Of a stretch of 64,000 bases of DNA, positions 3,998 through 34,171 are shown one piece after another. Source of the DNA: a virus (taxonomy: Duplodnaviria; Caudoviricetes); the IMG/VR virus record IMGVR_UViG_3300008085_000002, positions 10 to 64,009 of that record; one strand, 5' to 3'. The notes beneath the pieces are model-generated. The model was not told the origin of the DNA. It did no database searches and saw only the letters and a program-made list of their open reading frames with translations. Numbering within the stretch: the first letter of the stretch is position 1; each line of letters begins with the position of its first letter. The position numbers and the translations under genes are program-made.

Positions 3998-6900
3998 TTA
4001 GGCCCCTCCTGCCGCGCGGCGCACCACCTCAGGGTTGTTATTGATGATGTTTACCACCGCGTCTTCGCCTTCCGGAGTGGCCAGGTATTCACCGACCAGC
4101 GCCGGGTCCAGCACGTTGATGATGCGCTGGTTGACCACCGGAGCAGCGGCCGGGCCGCCCCCATCGCCGAACGAGCCGGTGCCCTTGCGGACCTGATTGG
4201 GAGTGCGCACGTCGATCTGCTCCCCTGGGCTTGCCCGGAAAGCGACCACCTGGCTGTCAGGTCCACCGGAGCCGCCCACCTTCATCGAGCCACCCGTCAT
4301 GAAGCTGGCGTTCTGGCTCAAGATGCCTGCCACGTTGGCAGCCGTGGCCGCGCCCACCGCTGCAGCCGCGATGAAGTTGAACGGGGGTGGGAAGGCGCTG
4401 AGGGCCTTTTGGACTGCTAGGTAGCCGTCGATGGTGGCCTGGGTGATGGCAGCCGCCTTGCCAATGGCAGCGAGCTCCTTGTTCTTCGACTTGCTGAGCC
4501 CAGCCAGGATGCCGAAGAAGTCGCGCTGCTTCTGCAGCCGCGCCTCCAGCATGGCGATCTCCACATTGTTGAGCGCCTGAGCCGCGCTCTGGGCGTCGAT
4601 CAGGTTCGCATCCCGGAGTGCCTTGATCTGGTCGTAGTAGGTCTGGTACTGCGACAGCTGCGCATCGAGCGCCGACTGAGTGCCCTCGAAGAACTGACCG
4701 AGCTCGCTACCTCCAGCCAGCTGGCTAAAGGCGTCGGCAAGGGTGAAGCCCTGACCACTTTCGAGCAGGGCTTTGGCGTCAGCCACCTGGTCGATGAACG
4801 CCTGGCGCGCGCCGACCGTGGCACCAAGCAGATCATTCTGCCCCCGCATGGCCTCATTCTCTTCGAGCAGCAAGGTCAGCCACTCGCGCTCAGCATCGGT
4901 GAGCTCGCGACCCAGGTCACGCTGGATGCGCAGCAAGTCCGAGCGAATACTCTGCTCTCGGCCGGTCAGCTGCAGTAGCTCGTACTCATCGTTCAAGTCG
5001 CGAACGTAGTCTTCTAGGTACCGGGTGTCGCGCGCCGCATAGAGGGCGTCGAGCCGGGCATTGGCGAGCTCGCGCTCAGCGGTGGTGAGCTCCCGGTCAA
5101 GGTCTCGCTCCATGCGCAGGATGTCGGCACGGCGCTCGTGCTCCTGACCGCTGAACTGCAGCAGGTAGATTTCATCCTGCATGTCGCGGTTGTTGTCTCG
5201 CAGATAGCGGTTGTCCCGCGCCGCCTGGAGGGCGGTGATGCGCGCATTGGCGAGTGCGAGCTCAGACTGCGTCAGCTGGCGCTTCATCTGGTCTTCCAGC
5301 TGCCACAGCATCTGGCGGCGCTCGGCTTCCCGGTTGGACAAGCCCAGGAGCTCGATCTCGCGCTCAATGTCTCGCAGCCAGGTGTTCAGCGCCTCACGGG
5401 CCTTCTTCTCCGCATCGCTCAGGTCATTGGTCGACCGGGTGAGGTTCTGGGTCGCACCGTTGAGCTCCCCGACCGCATCACCCGCGCCTGCAGCGTTCTG
5501 CCGGGCCCGCTCCATCACCGCGTCGAGGGCGTTGCCAACATAGTCGGTGGAGAAGGCGTCATTGGCCGCCGCGCCGAAGTCGCGCGCGAATTGAGCCCCT
5601 GCATCGCTCGCCTTGGCACGGGGGATTTCCACGTTGAAGTTGTCCAGGAAACCACTCAGCGCGGCCCCTGCCTCGTCGTCGATCAGGCCCAGGCCGCCAG
5701 CGATCAAGCGCAGCGGCACCTGCCAGGCGTTGAGCAGCTTCTCGGCCGCCGCCGCCCCCAGGTTCACGACGCTGGTGAAGATAGCGTCCATGAAGCCGGG
5801 GAAGTTGTTCCACGCCAGCTGCACAGTGCGGAAGGCCAGCACCCAGAGGCCGATGTAGCCATTGATGGCGGTCTTGAGCACCTTGAGGATGAACGAGAAC
5901 ACCTCAGTGGCGGTCGTGCCAAGCGCGCGGAACAGGGCATTCACCGCACCCATCGCCGCGTCCCAGGCGGTTTGGAACAGGGCGACCACACCGGACACGC
6001 TCTCCCAGATCAGCTGCATCGCGGCCACAGCCACGTCTTTGAGCGACACGAGACCGTCTTCGGTCACCTTGATGTCGTCGCCGAAGGCGATGAAGAGCGT
6101 GATGAGCGCCGTGAGGGCAACCGCCAGCGCGCCCAGGGGGTTGCTGGCAATGGCGAGGGTGAGGCCCTGGAACGCACCCTGCAGGCCCTTCATGCTGATC
6201 GAGGTCAGCGCGGCCGCCACGCTGGTTGCGCCAAGGGCGCGCTCCAGCGCGATCATGGGACCGAGCACCCCGGCTACGGCGCTGGCGATCTGCCAGCCCG
6301 CGAAGGCCGCGCCGATGCCTATGACGAGCGGGATTATGTTGTCAAGGTTGTTGGCGAGCAGCAGGATGGTTTGCGCCAGCCCCTGGGCAATGCCGTTGGT
6401 GGTGACGAATTCGCCCCAGAGCTCGATCACCTTGTTGCGCAGCACGGTAAAGCTCTGGCCAATGGTCGGCACCGTCTGGGCAAAATTGCCATCGAGCTCT
6501 TCACGCGCTTGCTTGAAGGCGTCGAGCACGATCTCGGCAGTGATCTTGCCTTCCTGCCCCATCTGCCGGAGCTCGCCACGGGTGACCCCTAGCGACTTGG
6601 CAATCACGTCCGCCACAGCAGGCAGCTGTTCGAGCACAGACCGGAGCTCATCGCCTCGGAGCGCACCAGAGGCCAGGCCCTGGCTCAGCTGTATGATACC
6701 AGCTTCGGCTTCGGCCGCGCTGGCACCAGACAGTATGACCGCCTGATTGAGGCTCTCAGTGAACTGGAGAAGCTCTTCTTGCGACCGACCCAGGTCCTTG
6801 GCTGCGAGGCCGACACGAGCGTAGAGCTCGGCCGTGCCCTCATAGCTGCTTCGGGTACGGTTCGCTATGCCGAAGAGCTCGTCGGTCACACGCGCCAGGT

Positions 6901-15225: not shown

Positions 15226-15287
15226 CCTAGCACCCGTGCCAACGGAATGCTGCGACCCAAAGGCTCGTGCCCTCGGCTATGAAACTC

Positions 15288-15614
15288 GTGGGGACCTTCT
15301 GTTCCAAGGCCGTCCCCGGAGCCCGTGTCAAGCTGCCTTAGGCGGCGAGACGATGTGCCATTGCTGGCTCGTTGTCGTTGACATTTAGTCAGCTGTCCCG
15401 TCACGGTGGGCCAATCCGAGCCGCGTCCCTACCTCAGCCTACACAGTCGATCCTGGTTCAGGCCCATCATCAACCCTCAGTCCCGCCTTGCCAGGCCCCC
15501 ATCCGGGGAAGGGCTATCCAGCGAGCCGTCCGGCTCGACTGAGGGCTGGTGGTGGACCTGGCGGGTACTGCCCCCGCGTCCTGTGCATCCATCAGCGGGC
15601 CGAATTACGGCCGT
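15288..15614 (-). ncRNA. ssrA: Two-piece (circularly permuted) alphaproteobacterial-type tmRNA: acceptor piece ~15614-15550, intervening segment 15549-15466, coding piece 15465-~15288
   Basis: T-arm GCGGG-GGCAGTA-CCCGC, then CAGGTCC-A-CCA (CCA end at 15550); 5' end GGGCCTGAACCAGGATCGAC at 15465 pairs with it to give a 7-bp acceptor stem with G3:U70; helix CUGUGUA/UGCACAG; TAAAT resume context; tag ORF ending LAA*; alpha-type 3' motif GGAACAGAAG. The exact outer ends are estimates. Confidence 0.93.
15338..15382 (-). other. tmRNA proteolysis-tag reading frame VNDNEPAMAHRLAA*
   Basis: GTC AAC GAC AAC GAG CCA GCA ATG GCA CAT CGT CTC GCC GCC TAA, directly after GACTAAAT. Confidence 0.9.
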
Positions 15615-15620
15615 GCATCC

Positions 15621-15649
15621 TGGGTGCCTCAAGGGAAGCACCCAGGCAA
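15621..15649 (-). promoter_or_regulatory. Putative promoter of the tmRNA gene
   Basis: TTGCCT-N17(ending TGAGG)-CACCCA, same pattern as other phage promoters; overlaps inverted repeat CCTGGGTGC...GCACCCAGG. Confidence 0.6.
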
Positions 15650-15654
15650 TCGGT

Positions 15655-16974
15655 TTAGAGGGCCACCACCTTGCAGCGGTTCAGCTGTGTCTCCTGGGCC
15701 CCGTTGTAGTCGCTGTGGCGCTTCACCGTCCCGTCCAACTTGCACTGCTGACCGTTCTGGAGGCCGGTGCCGCTGGCGGTAAACCAGGTGTACATGTTCC
15801 CAGCCTCGTCGCGGAACTTGACCAGGACCATGTCGCCCCAATCGCTGCTGATCGAGCGGCTGAGCTCCTGGGTCACGATGAGGCCCTTGAGGCGCTCGCC
15901 CACCTGACCCTGCCAGCGGCTGTTGGCGTCGACCTTCTTGGCCTTGGCGCGCTCGACTTCACGCTCCATGGCGCGCTCGTAGGAGGCCACCGCGCTGCAG
16001 ACGAAGCCAGCCCGCTTCATCTCAGTGAGCTCGGTCGAGCAGAGCACCTGGAGGTTGTGGCCGTAGTCGCCCGTACCAGCGCCGCCTTCGGCTGCCCACT
16101 GGACGACGCGCTCTGCGAGCTCCCAATCGGCCTCGGTCACTGCCTTGGCGAGCTCGTCCATGCGCGCCTTGCGGTCACGATTGTAGTCTTTGCCGATATC
16201 CATCGGCGGCCACAGCACGTCGGTCACATGGTCGCGGGTGGAGGTGATCTCCTGAGCCATCGCCTGGGCCTTGGAAGCCCAGCCGCGAAGGCGGATGCAG
16301 GCCGAGCTCAGGGCAACAACCTCAACGGTCGGGGCAAAACCGCCCCAGCCGCTGCCACCCCATTCGCTCTCGCTGTCCCGGATGGCCTTGAAGAAGGCGA
16401 ACCGCTGAGCGACCTGGCTGGGGTCGCAGTAGCCGAGAAAGTCCTTGAGGCAGGTACGGCCGACCTGGACCTCTTCGCCAGTCTCAGTGTTGCGGAGCAC
16501 GAAGGTCTCGTTCCGCTGGCGGTCGGTGCGGCAATGCTCACACGAGCTCTTGGTGGTGCGGAAGCGGCGGTCGACGGTACGGCCGGGGATAATGTCGACG
16601 ATGTTGCCGCCCTGGGTGTGCTCGATCTTGGCGAGAAACTCGTACGGGCCGACCTGGGGTGCGCTGCCTTCGATCGTGACCGGCACCCGCCAAGGGCCCA
16701 GCACCTCAACCTTGCGGCCGTCGAAACGGGTGCGGGTCTCGCGCTCCTGGAAAGGCTCGCCGAAGCTGTAGCTCACATCCGGGTTGCCGTAGCGGGTGGC
16801 CTTGCGGACCAGCTTGTCGAGCTCCTTGCGGGCTTCGGCCATGCGGTCCTGCAGGATGAGGATGGTCTGGGGGCCAGTGGTGGCCTCGTATTCTTCGCGC
16901 TCAGCGGCCATCTCGGCCTCAAGGGCTTCACGGTCGTCGAGGGCGATTAGGCCGGGAGCGATCTGGGTAGGCAT
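15655..16974 (-). CDS. Hypothetical early protein with Cys motifs and probable C-terminal OB fold
   Basis: CEHC..., VGRTCLKDFLG motif; C-terminal beta-rich segment ending QETQLNRCKV; own promoter and AGAAAAGGAG RBS. Confidence 0.6.
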   Translation of the reverse strand: MPTQIAPGLIALDDREALEAEMAAEREEYEATTGPQTILILQDRMAEARKELDKLVRKATRYGNPDVSYSFGEPFQERETRTRFDGRKVEVLGPWRVPVTIEGSAPQVGPYEFLAKIEHTQGGNIVDIIPGRTVDRRFRTTKSSCEHCRTDRQRNETFVLRNTETGEEVQVGRTCLKDFLGYCDPSQVAQRFAFFKAIRDSESEWGGSGWGGFAPTVEVVALSSACIRLRGWASKAQAMAQEITSTRDHVTDVLWPPMDIGKDYNRDRKARMDELAKAVTEADWELAERVVQWAAEGGAGTGDYGHNLQVLCSTELTEMKRAGFVCSAVASYERAMEREVERAKAKKVDANSRWQGQVGERLKGLIVTQELSRSISSDWGDMVLVKFRDEAGNMYTWFTASGTGLQNGQQCKLDGTVKRHSDYNGAQETQLNRCKVVAL

Positions 16975-28843: not shown

Positions 28844-29056
28844 TCACCAGCTGCTTCCCTTCTTGATTGGGTCATCACGGCGCTCCAGCTTGAGCCGGTG
28901 GGCCTTCCCGATAACCGCATTCTTGGTGACCGCCCCACCCAGCTTCTTGGCGATGGTAGAGGCGGGCACCCCGTTCTCCCACATAGACCTGAGCGTTGCC
29001 ACACGGTCGTCGCTCCAGAAGGTCTGCTCCTTGAGCCCAGGGATGCGCTCAGCCAT
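28844..29056 (-). CDS. gcrA: GcrA-like protein (N-terminal domain only, 70 aa)
   Basis: WSDDRVATLRSMWENGVPASTIAKKLGGAVTKNAVIGKAHRLKL matches the GcrA N-terminal signature. Confidence 0.88.
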   Translation of the reverse strand: MAERIPGLKEQTFWSDDRVATLRSMWENGVPASTIAKKLGGAVTKNAVIGKAHRLKLERRDDPIKKGSSW

Positions 29057-32102: not shown

Positions 32103-32139
32103 AAAAAGCCCCGGCCCCTTGGAGTGAGGGACCGGGGCT
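32103..32139 (-). terminator. Rho-independent terminator
   Basis: AGCCCCGGTCCCTCACTCCAAGGGGCCGGGGCT followed by TTTT. Confidence 0.8.
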
Positions 32140-32163: not shown

Positions 32164-32355
32164 TTATGCAGCGAGCTTGAAGCGATGGTCGCCGATGTTC
32201 TTGATCGGCATCTTCTTGGCGCGCAGGCGGTCGATGACGCCCCGCGCGGCCTTGGTGCTCGTGAGCTCCAGCCGCTCAGCCAGCTGCTCGACGGTTGCGC
32301 CGTGCTTGCGCTTGAGCATCTGGAGAGCGGTCTCCTGCTTGGTCTTGGTCTGCAT
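32164..32355 (-). CDS. Winged-HTH protein, DUF3489-like
   Basis: TKQETALQMLKRKHGATVEQLAERL...AARGVI. Confidence 0.6.
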   Translation of the reverse strand: MQTKTKQETALQMLKRKHGATVEQLAERLELTSTKAARGVIDRLRAKKMPIKNIGDHRFKLAA

Positions 32356-32455
32356 GTTTCTCACTCCATTTCTATGTACGAGGGCTTTACGTACCCTCGG
32401 CGCTTGAACCTGTAGCGGCCCCACAGGTTCCAGGCTGGCTGCAGAAAGTGAAAAG

Positions 32456-32611
32456 TCACTTATTCATTTCCCCGTCGATGACGCAGACCTGTGCGCTTTC
32501 AAAGGCACACTGCAGCCGTTCAGCCTGGTGTACAAGATATTCACCGATGGAGCTCAGAACAATAACCAAGGTTAAGGCAATGAGGCCCCAGATGAGTGCT
32601 TTCTCGACCAT
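32456..32611 (-). CDS. Flp/Tad pilin-like membrane peptide without leader (51 aa; not in the ORF track)
   Basis: MVEKALIWGLIALTLVIVLSSIGEYL aligns without gaps to the mature Flp pilin N-terminal helix; TGATG coupling to the upstream ORF; ~49% GC (manual count 32461-32580). Confidence 0.6.
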   Translation of the reverse strand: MVEKALIWGLIALTLVIVLSSIGEYLVHQAERLQCAFESAQVCVIDGEMNK

Positions 32612-32856
32612 CAGGCAACACTCCGGTCGCGGCTCAGGCGGCGGCCGAAGACGGTGCGGCGCTCGACCTGGCGCTGCTCGGTACCGACGAAGGGCAGGCT
32701 GAACTCACGGCGCTGAGCGGCGCGGCGCTCGCGCAGCTGGCGTTCGGCGGCCGCGCGGCAATCCTTTTGGATGCGGCGCAGGCGCAGGGCCTCGTGGTAG
32801 GCAGCAATGTGCTGGAAGTGATAGCCGTCGAAGTATGATGCTTCTGCGTAGTCCAT
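32611..32856 (-). CDS. Arg-rich hypothetical protein, first gene downstream of the CtrA box
   Basis: AGAAAAGGAG RBS; 81 aa. Confidence 0.65.
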   Translation of the reverse strand: MDYAEASYFDGYHFQHIAAYHEALRLRRIQKDCRAAAERQLRERRAAQRREFSLPFVGTEQRQVERRTVFGRRLSRDRSVA

Positions 32857-32895
32857 GGTGGTCTCCTTTTCTGAAGACCACCATGGCGCACATTC

Positions 32896-32911
32896 GTTAA
32901 GAAAGAGTTAG
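32896..32911 (-). promoter_or_regulatory. CtrA-binding site (one mismatch)
   Basis: CTAA-CTCTTTC-TTAAC versus consensus TTAA-N7-TTAAC; extra TTAA half-site at 32924-32921; intergenic; TTAA is scarce elsewhere in this genome. Confidence 0.65.
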
Positions 32912-32920
32912 CTCTCGTGG

Positions 32921-34171
32921 TTAAAATACAGGCTCGTCATCGAACACCCGCGCGGCGGTACCGACCGCGCCGACCCCGTCGACTGCCAGCGTGACCAGCC
33001 GGTCGATCAGGTAATTCTGGAAGTCACGGCTGTTGTCCTGGAAGCCGTACTCCAGGTGGAGGTGCTCTTCCATCAACGTCCCGGCCACGGTCTTCACGCC
33101 CATGTCGAAGCACCGCTTGCTGAGCACGATGGCCTTGTTGAGCACGGTGCCCAGGCGGCCGACGCCAAGGTGCTCGACGATGATGAGCGGGCTCTTGTTG
33201 ATGTCGTAGCCCATGGCGTGGACGATGGCCTTGGCTTCCTCCAGCTGGCGCTCCTGAGCCGGGGTGAGCTTGGCAGGCTGGACGGCCGGGGCCTCCCGGT
33301 ACCGCGCCAACAGGCCCTGGACCGCCAGGTTGCAGGGGAGCTCGACGGCGCGCGCCACCTCTTCGGCCGCGTCCAGGAAGGCCTTGGACGGCCGCTCCCC
33401 GGTGCAGGCCAGATCGAGCTTGTGCTCGAAGCTGTCGCGGGGTGAGGTGAGCCACTGCTTGAGGAACCGGCTGTCCTCAGAGCGGATGATCGAGCGCGCG
33501 ATGGCCTGGTGCGCCAGGTGCGGGAACTTGATCGTCCGGTCTTCGGTGAGCACCAGCGGGGTGAGCACGTTGTAGCAGAAGCTCGCCTGCTGCTGGAGCT
33601 CGGCCGCCAGGATGCCCCGGTAGTACACATGATTGCTCTCGCCGGGGTGCACGTCGACGCCCTCCAGCCGATAGTCCGGCTCCTTGGTGAGCACGATGCC
33701 GCCCCGGTTGGTGTAGGCGTTCTCGATGTCGACCACGCCCTGCACATGGATGGTGGTCGTGCCCTCCCTGGGCCTGTGACCATCCCGGTCCATGATCGTC
33801 TCGCCGCGCTCGTCGATCGTGTTGCAGTAAAGCTCCCGGAAAGCCTGCCAGCCTTCCCAATTCAAGCCCAGTCGGGTGGTGAAGCCGAGCTCACGCGGCT
33901 CCCGGCCGACCTCGCAGCCAGGGCCGTACTCGGTCATGGTGATGACCTCGAAGTCCTGGTCGCGCACCCGCACCGGAGCCTTTGAGAACACGTAGCGGTG
34001 CAGGCCCGACCAGACGGTGATGGCCCCGCCGCTGCGCAGGATCACGCTGATGGCGTACTTGAGGCCAGAGCCGAAGTAGCCGATGGGGCTGTCGCCTTCC
34101 TTGGCGCTGATGCCGATCGTGGTGACGGCGCGCATGTCAATTTCGCCGTCGTTCTGGAAGCTGATAATCAT
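32921..34171 (-). CDS. GHKL-type ATPase with apparently permuted motif order and C-terminal zincin-like motif
   Basis: NDGEID...GISAK...IGYFGSGLK near the N-terminus; N-box RELYCNTIDE ~100 aa later; EEHLH...DNSRDF near the C-terminus. Confidence 0.6.
   Translation of the reverse strand: MIISFQNDGEIDMRAVTTIGISAKEGDSPIGYFGSGLKYAISVILRSGGAITVWSGLHRYVFSKAPVRVRDQDFEVITMTEYGPGCEVGREPRELGFTTRLGLNWEGWQAFRELYCNTIDERGETIMDRDGHRPREGTTTIHVQGVVDIENAYTNRGGIVLTKEPDYRLEGVDVHPGESNHVYYRGILAAELQQQASFCYNVLTPLVLTEDRTIKFPHLAHQAIARSIIRSEDSRFLKQWLTSPRDSFEHKLDLACTGERPSKAFLDAAEEVARAVELPCNLAVQGLLARYREAPAVQPAKLTPAQERQLEEAKAIVHAMGYDINKSPLIIVEHLGVGRLGTVLNKAIVLSKRCFDMGVKTVAGTLMEEHLHLEYGFQDNSRDFQNYLIDRLVTLAVDGVGAVGTAARVFDDEPVF

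Follow-up and report, generated by a model that had tools for sequence, protein, structure and literature searches.

Does a small phage gene that reads like a pilin without its leader encode a protein aimed at the pili of the host? The question is raised by a locus in a 64,000-nucleotide stretch of viral DNA (Duplodnaviria; Caudoviricetes; positions 10 to 64,009 of IMG/VR record IMGVR_UViG_3300008085_000002), here called the window, which corresponds approximately to a whole phage genome (64,009 bp with direct terminal repeats in IMG/VR). An open reading frame (ORF) on its minus strand, ORF51 (32456..32611), starts MVEKALIWGL and specifies a leaderless, Flp/Tad-pilin-like membrane protein of 51 amino acids (aa). 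The locus was the subject of a preliminary description, and the features it reported, ORF51, the upstream gene ORF81, a CtrA-like box and a half-site, were all located at the coordinates given below. ORF51 is very likely a real gene with a specific Flp-type helix. We tentatively read its product as an accessory protein of the inner membrane that resembles the mature Tad pilin and would interfere with Tad pili.

ORF51, its family and its likeness to Flp pilins

An exhaustive HMMER and profile search placed ORF51 in a family of 22 clusters, all 50-53 aa long and aligned from residue 1. Every cluster begins M-[VIL]-E-[KR]-A-L, none has a leader, and M1, E3, A5, L6, C35, C43 and D46 are invariant. 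In ORF51 itself an M-V-E-K N-terminus leads into a hydrophobic helix at approximately residues 5-23, followed by an acidic tail that carries Cys35, Cys43 and Asp46. The copies in the window and in the related locus L133 share 75% aa identity, with 0.18 nonsynonymous (dN) and 0.96 synonymous (dS) substitutions per site and a dN/dS of 0.19, the pattern expected of a real gene under purifying selection. Its composition is atypical. The measured GC content of 0.50 agrees with the earlier figure of ~49%, GC at third codon positions is 0.60 vs a mean of 0.85 in 30 long ORFs, and the gene uses a TTA codon that essentially never occurs in those ORFs. Because homologs in other phages are GC-rich and match their surroundings, low GC appears to be a peculiarity of the sub-lineage comprising the window and L005, and not a trait of the family.

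One member is found in a cultured phage. Sphingomonas phage Kimi, a lytic siphovirus reported to adsorb slowly (PMC10385605), carries WLJ71086.1, the 51-aa product of an unnamed gene. ORF51 had been called unannotated, which does not hold throughout: the Joint Genome Institute (JGI) pipeline named a 92%-identical homolog 'Flp pilus assembly pilin Flp', and GenBank lists the Kimi homolog as a hypothetical protein.

Flp_Fap (PF04964) is the sole Pfam match of ORF51 (E 0.013, 15.7 bits, residues 1-27 on profile positions 10-36). No other Pfam family is matched by as many members of the phage family. Alphaproteobacterial genomes supplied a reference set of 44 genuine Flp prepilins. The preliminary description had proposed an ungapped match to the mature Flp helix, and this holds across the set, with 6-11 identities in 26 positions (mean 7.7) vs 2.7 +/- 1.15 for composition-matched shuffles. 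When the phage family was compared with an alignment of 32 of the Flp pilins using hhalign, the probability was 83% (P 8.7e-6, score 29.9, 39 columns), with Glu3 of the phage proteins on Glu5 of Flp. Block-shuffling of the columns, which keeps composition and destroys order, gave a mean score of 10.9 and a maximum of 18.5, so that 0 of 200 shuffles reached 29.9, and the reversed alignment scored 13.2. The family profile was also searched against 151 alphaproteobacterial genomes in six frames; by coordinates, 19 of the top 21 matches were Flp loci called with PF04964, as were 30 of the 41 with E < 0.05. Among 177,635 distinct PDB sequences, the top two were the Caulobacter Tad pilins 8U2B and 8U1K, family residues 2-40 aligning with chain residues 4-42 of the 45-residue Caulobacter PilA. 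The family and Flp consensuses agree at most positions, including the equivalents of L8, A11, L12, I/V13, A14, T/S22, G25 and L28. Single-sequence comparisons thus point only weakly to a Flp likeness, and the profile-level tests argue for it much more strongly.

The predicted architecture is similar as well. Mature PilA has no globular domain and consists of a continuous helix of 45 residues (PMC10710030), and in the AlphaFold2 (AF2) model of ORF51 residues 2-37 of 51 form a single unbroken helix, followed by a low-confidence tail. ORF51 thus resembles a mature Tad pilin in its length, in being a small, wholly helical subunit without a globular domain, and in having a single helix that is first hydrophobic and then polar. 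The Glu at mature position 5 of the hydrophobic alpha-1 helix is common to both families, appearing as the invariant Glu3 in the phage proteins.

The departures from a canonical prepilin are consistent across the family. The class III signal peptide (G/XXXXEY, cleaved by TadV/CpaA) is found in 44 of 44 references and in 0 of 22 phage members. The phage start, M-[VIL]-E, corresponds to mature Flp residues 3-5; there is no cleavage Gly, and residues 1-2, including Thr2, are missing. Lys or Arg stands where Flp has an invariant Tyr6, and an aromatic residue replaces Ala10. The lack of a leader, cleavage Gly and Tyr that had been pointed out for ORF51, with Lys in place of the Tyr, is therefore correct. 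Unlike Flp genes, which are found in tad loci, the phage genes are encoded by lytic-type phages. Position 4 is basic throughout the family, and the tail is mostly acidic. On account of these net charges and the Cys pair, an N-in/C-out topology like that of a pilin is suggested, with a 4-residue cytoplasmic N-terminus and a periplasmic acidic tail in which Cys35 and Cys43 would form a disulfide.

Genomic contexts and the case for a possible pilus role

In every context examined the Flp-like gene lies in a phage early-gene region, and there are two main lineages. Lineage A, which includes the window, has the gene order 416 aa, 81 aa, 51 aa, helix-turn-helix (HTH), and lineage B, made up of ~48-kb phages, has genes for 107 aa, 51 aa and 287 aa that are tightly coupled. 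No tad genes were found near the Flp-like gene in 14 of 14 loci (13 metagenomic contigs and phage Kimi). A second 50-aa ORF in lineage-B loci was considered as an ORF51 paralog and rejected. We also rejected a holin or lysis role, given the acidic Cys-pair tail of periplasmic type, the location in early regions and the fact that lysozyme genes are not adjacent.

Among close relatives of the window the gene comes and goes. In L001 and L002, the two closest relatives, whose neighbouring gene is 97% identical, ORF51 is missing, and the absent stretch is bounded exactly by the stop codons of ORF81 and ORF51. The gene is a mobile cassette that some close relatives have and others lack, and in the window lineage it rides on the ORF81 operon. 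At the cassette edge, just past the stop codon, there is a 9-bp inversion: window positions 32430-32455 read CACTTTCTG, and L001 and L002 carry the reverse complement, CAGAAAGTG (L001:~5500-5530).

Several observations weigh against a role in pilus interference. Some concern the likeness itself. The Pfam gathering score of 32.2 bits is reached by no member of the family (15-18 bits, best 18.2), whereas genuine Flp pilins score 40-74 bits, and Flp_Fap is matched at E <= 0.1 in only 7 of the 22 members. The hidden Markov model search called for in the preliminary description thus returned Flp_Fap and no other Pfam family for ORF51, but at a score below the cutoff. A single-sequence phmmer search of ORF51 against PDB found no pilin, and pilins emerged with the family profile only; ESM Atlas gave best scores of 0.79-0.84 and no Flp cluster; and NCBIfam and PHROGs v4 searches returned nothing, neither collection having a family for ORF51. 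Foldseek comparison of the AF2 model with PDB also gave no matches, as expected, because a lone helix cannot discriminate between folds. Others concern biology. ORF51 is dispensable, as L001 and L002 demonstrate, and lineage B places the gene inside an early lytic operon with no pilus-related genes linked to it. The invariant Cys-x7-Cys-x2-Asp tail, with its Cys pair and Asp46, has no Flp counterpart. Finally, cryo-electron microscopy has identified Thr2 and Tyr6 as the source of polar, register-setting contacts between Tad subunits (PMC10710030), and because these subunit-holding residues are missing, ORF51 may not engage pilins at all.

The same observations can be accommodated if ORF51 is a Flp-derived or Flp-like sequence with a function unrelated to pili. 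The helix would then be a membrane anchor for a periplasmic Cys-loop peptide, and the target could be another secretion or division complex, a receptor, or the membrane itself, perturbed early in infection. This account fits the location of the most distinctive invariants (C35, A40, C43 and D46) in the tail, the loss of Tyr6 and Thr2, and the lineage-B setting of the gene among early genes without a known function. It also fits the recurrent association with an ORF81-type protein, which is unrelated to pili. What it leaves unexplained is that similarity to Flp extends over 39 columns, nearly the whole mature pilin and well beyond a membrane anchor, that Glu3 is invariant at the position of Glu5, and that the overall length is that of a mature Tad pilin. 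We consider a function unrelated to pili somewhat unlikely, and interference with Tad pili remains our preferred, if tentative, reading.

The host, the ORF81 transcription unit and its CtrA-like box

Transcription of the window runs almost entirely on the minus strand. The gene immediately upstream of the ORF81 unit, which served as the anchor for finding relatives, encodes a 416-aa protein (32921..34171, minus strand; phrog_8203), a homolog of Pseudomonas virus Yua gp29. Its homologs at 35-46% identity are found in YuA/M6-like siphophages of Pseudomonas and Bordetella and in a few alphaproteobacterial phages, and a megablast search of the region against cultured phages matched nothing. The window also contains a complete, two-piece (permuted) transfer-messenger RNA (tmRNA) at 15287-15663 (minus strand), which scores 91 bits with the Rfam model alpha_tmRNA and 94 bits with tmRNA_permuted; ARAGORN gives its tag as VNDNEPAMAHRLAA. 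The 70-aa product of 28844-29056 (minus strand) consists of the N-terminal domain alone of GcrA (NCBIfam sig70cofacGcrA, E 6e-17, profile positions 3-53 of 173), a regulator confined to Alphaproteobacteria. Because the genome carries both, the host is very probably an alphaproteobacterium and is therefore likely to possess CtrA, as the preliminary description had implied. The family member in Sphingomonas phage Kimi is in keeping with such a host.

The GcrA fragment does not name a single host, its similarity being scattered over many alphaproteobacterial orders at 45-56%. The gene is also present in relatives (Pfam GcrA in L005). The best match, at 78% identity, is encoded by L011 (DAIRDB010000029.1), a 42.9-kb contig in a metagenome-assembled genome (MAG) labelled 'Gammaproteobacteria', which is probably a related phage contig binned into the MAG and not the host. 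Flp genes are present in 76 of the 151 sampled alphaproteobacterial genomes, or about half. In one of these genomes (G146) the Flp pilin genes are unusually expanded, with 42 Flp_Fap matches.

ORF81 (32611..32856, minus strand) is the first gene of the operon. It is joined to ORF51 by the TGATG on which translational coupling had been proposed, the ATG of ORF51 and the TGA of ORF81 having one base in common. The protein has an N-terminal YAEASYFDGYHFQHIAAY motif and an Arg-rich tail that suggests nucleic-acid binding, and it has no Pfam, PHROG or NCBIfam match. Its 28 homolog clusters, 44-81 aa in length, are widespread small phage proteins in which YAEASYFDGYHFQHIAAY is near-invariant. An ORF81-type gene accompanies the Flp-like gene in every lineage examined (examples are L151:4811-5008, L008:8397-8585, L010:6308-6481 and L136:9954-10148). 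It adjoins the Flp-like gene in lineage A, lies directly upstream of it in Kimi, and in lineage B is found 3-4 kb away, just before the 155-aa and lysozyme genes.

A 14-bp RNA hairpin (32853..32886, minus strand) is predicted to bury the GGAG Shine-Dalgarno sequence and AUG of ORF81. Its minimum free energy is -30.4 kcal/mol (z = -8.1), none of 200 shuffles gives an equally stable fold, and it is unchanged in 7 loci except for one G-C to G-U substitution. Since this sole substitution still pairs and the fold is very stable, an RNA hairpin was preferred to the alternative that the 12-bp inverted repeat is a DNA operator for the HTH protein, which was judged less likely. Weaker folds that span the ribosome-binding site, for which no shuffle comparison was made, occur upstream of the ORF81-type genes of L010 (-24.6) and Kimi (-12.7). 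Downstream of ORF51, the spacer that separates it from the HTH gene (32356..32455, minus strand) contains two conserved hairpins (RNAalifold with 4 loci gives 27 pairs, of which 2 show compensatory changes). A 63-aa HTH protein (32164..32355, minus strand; DUF3489/HTH_11, Pfam E 2.5e-7 and 7e-7) is the product of the final gene, and a strong intrinsic terminator with a 13-bp GC-rich stem and a T run (32107..32139, minus strand) closes the three-gene unit.

The CtrA-like box and half-site claimed for this operon are both present. The box, CTAA-N7-TTAAC (32896..32911, minus strand), has one mismatch to TTAA-N7-TTAAC and lies ~40 nt upstream of the ORF81 ATG; the half-site, TTAACCAC (32917..32924, minus strand), matches TTAACCAT at 7 of 8 positions and overlaps the stop codon of the 416-aa gene. 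The 64 kb contain no second site with one mismatch or fewer; chance predicts 0.45 (scored as a 16-mer) or 0.88 (as a 15-mer), and 59% of shuffled genomes contain at least one 15-mer match. With 0.45-0.88 such sites expected per genome, the box is not significant alone. We found no enrichment or cluster of CtrA sites in the genome, terminal repeats and gap regions included, and no sigma-70-like -10/-35 pair in the ORF81 promoter region. The 64-nt intergenic region is better conserved than the flanking coding sequence in seven lineage-A loci. Three direct xTAAC repeats, the half-site among them, are clustered there and nowhere else in the genome, and 3 of the genome's 9 TTAAC pentamers fall inside the 470 bp of the ORF51-ORF81 locus. 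The box is kept in all lineage-A loci, with its deviating first base C or G and never the consensus T. It is tempting to speculate that, if the box occupies the -35 position, transcripts would start inside the hairpin and be translatable, and read-through from upstream would be closed to translation.

The box does not track with ORF51. Together with the hairpin it is conserved upstream of ORF81 in L001 and L002, which have no ORF51, and it is absent near the Flp-like gene in L010, L136-L138 and phage Kimi. The proposed link between the two is therefore not supported, and the search for the pair in related phages found it broken in both directions. L008 has three CtrA-like sites with one mismatch each (L008:2099-2312), 2.7 kb upstream of its Flp-like gene; they are clustered in a 290-bp intergenic region between a DUF3987 primase gene and a PDDEXK gene, and the cluster is lacking in the sister loci L010 and L136-L138. 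In lineage B, the regions upstream of ORF81-type genes share a core, AAC-NN-TTTCTTAA, with the box of the window, at the same distance from the ATG. The upstream half of the lineage-B element is GAAA, which makes it a poor CtrA site. Because core and ATG distance recur at these genes, we assign the box element, on sequence grounds, to the promoter of the ORF81-type gene. CtrA binding to it is possible.

These results bear on the full model of the preliminary description, in which CtrA~P drives the operon when the host transcribes pilA, so that a defective pilin would provide cell-cycle-timed superinfection exclusion. A likely alphaproteobacterial host, and a site that is unique in the genome and embedded in a conserved intergenic region with the only three-repeat cluster, are in keeping with this model. 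CtrA has, moreover, been found to regulate promoters of pilus- or flagellum-dependent alphaproteobacterial phages, in which sites form dense clusters and control was established by electrophoretic mobility shift and reporter assays (Mascolo et al. 2022, PMC9437464); vB_BsubS-Delta, for example, has 12 canonical CtrA sites in a 1.3-kb gap. The window resembles those phages in its probable alphaproteobacterial host and in a TTAA-N7-TTAA-like element that lies within a conserved intergenic promoter region and precedes functionally uncharacterized genes. It differs in that they have many high-scoring sites, whereas the window offers one imperfect candidate, with no enrichment and none of the dense clustering of the validated cases. 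A single site matches chance expectation, no relative restores the consensus base, box and gene are found without each other, only L008 has further CtrA-like sites and these lie at a distance, and the lineage-B element would bind CtrA poorly. Cell-cycle timing through CtrA is accordingly very unlikely.

A possible mechanism and its relation to known pilus inhibitors

If ORF51 does act on pili, it need not poison them. It could be built into host Tad pili as a functional pilin-type subunit, such as a cap or minor pilin, and alter them, for example by masking a site used by competitor phages. A protein with the size and helix of a mature Tad pilin that needs no peptidase processing would suit such a role, and the periplasmic Cys loop could be surface-exposed, but residues 1-2 and Tyr6, which set the helical register of the filament, are missing, and we know of no solved or described pilus with an unprocessed, Met-initiated subunit; we regard incorporation as most improbable. 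That the likeness is a chance property of a generic transmembrane helix, or that ORF51 is not expressed, is scarcely credible: individual Pfam scores are under threshold and the ORF is short and compositionally atypical for the genome, but the shuffled and reversed controls do not reach the real hhalign score, Flp genes rather than thousands of other transmembrane helices rank first in the whole-genome searches and Tad pilins in the PDB search, and the gene, which is conserved in different phage lineages, evolves under purifying selection.

We propose, tentatively, that interference with Tad pili proceeds as follows. A YuA-like siphophage would make ORF51, a 51-aa single-pass inner-membrane protein, in its alphaproteobacterial host. 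Because the protein is made already 'mature', prepilin peptidase would not be needed. Within the inner membrane, ORF51 could then mix with the host pilins or enter the Tad assembly platform and, serving as a decoy or a defective subunit, bring the assembly or the dynamics of pili to a stop in that cell. The phage would gain protection from superinfection by pilus-dependent phages, or from loss of progeny on cells that are already infected. The ORF81 operon would contribute its own conserved promoter element, to which CtrA may or may not bind, and the hairpin that occludes the ribosome-binding site. A more specific version, in which the mature core of a host Flp was captured with its leader stripped, bypasses the peptidase checkpoint and acts as a chain-terminating or decoy Tad subunit, expressed in the window lineage from a CtrA-responsive promoter, is unlikely to be right in all its parts.

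Tad pili are receptors of many alphaproteobacterial phages and are central to surface sensing in Caulobacter. A natural leaderless pilin would be a probe of the part that the prepilin leader and Thr2/Tyr6 play in Tad assembly, and of whether poisoning of the platform by way of the membrane pool is possible. Since a family member is present in the cultured lytic Sphingomonas phage Kimi, with its host in hand, a direct test is feasible. Should ORF51 have no effect on pili, the finding would shrink to a small conserved family of phage membrane proteins with a Flp-type helix.

Our search of the literature found no description of a phage-encoded leaderless pilin-like protein and no phage inhibitor of Tad (type IVc) pili; the phage inhibitors of type IV pili that it did find act on the motor ATPase, a chaperone or the platform, and none is a pilin look-alike. 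PfsE (PA0721), a small inner-membrane protein of the Pseudomonas filamentous phage Pf4, binds PilC, blocks type IV pili and excludes superinfection (PMC8764522). It shares with ORF51 a very small size and an inner-membrane location, predicted in the case of ORF51, and its documented role is the one proposed here. PfsE differs in that it acts on PilC of a type IVa system and is not described as pilin-like (PMC8764522), and we found no sequence relationship between the two. Aqs1 of DMS3, which targets PilB (PMC13436744), and Zip, which acts through PilZ (bioRxiv 2024.03.05.583538), are likewise phage accessory genes that disable a pilus receptor, as suggested for ORF51. Both proteins are soluble and cytoplasmic and act on the motor ATPase or a chaperone, in contrast to a membrane pilin look-alike. 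If our reading is correct, ORF51 would achieve the same end by a different route, receptor shutdown through structural mimicry of the pilin itself.

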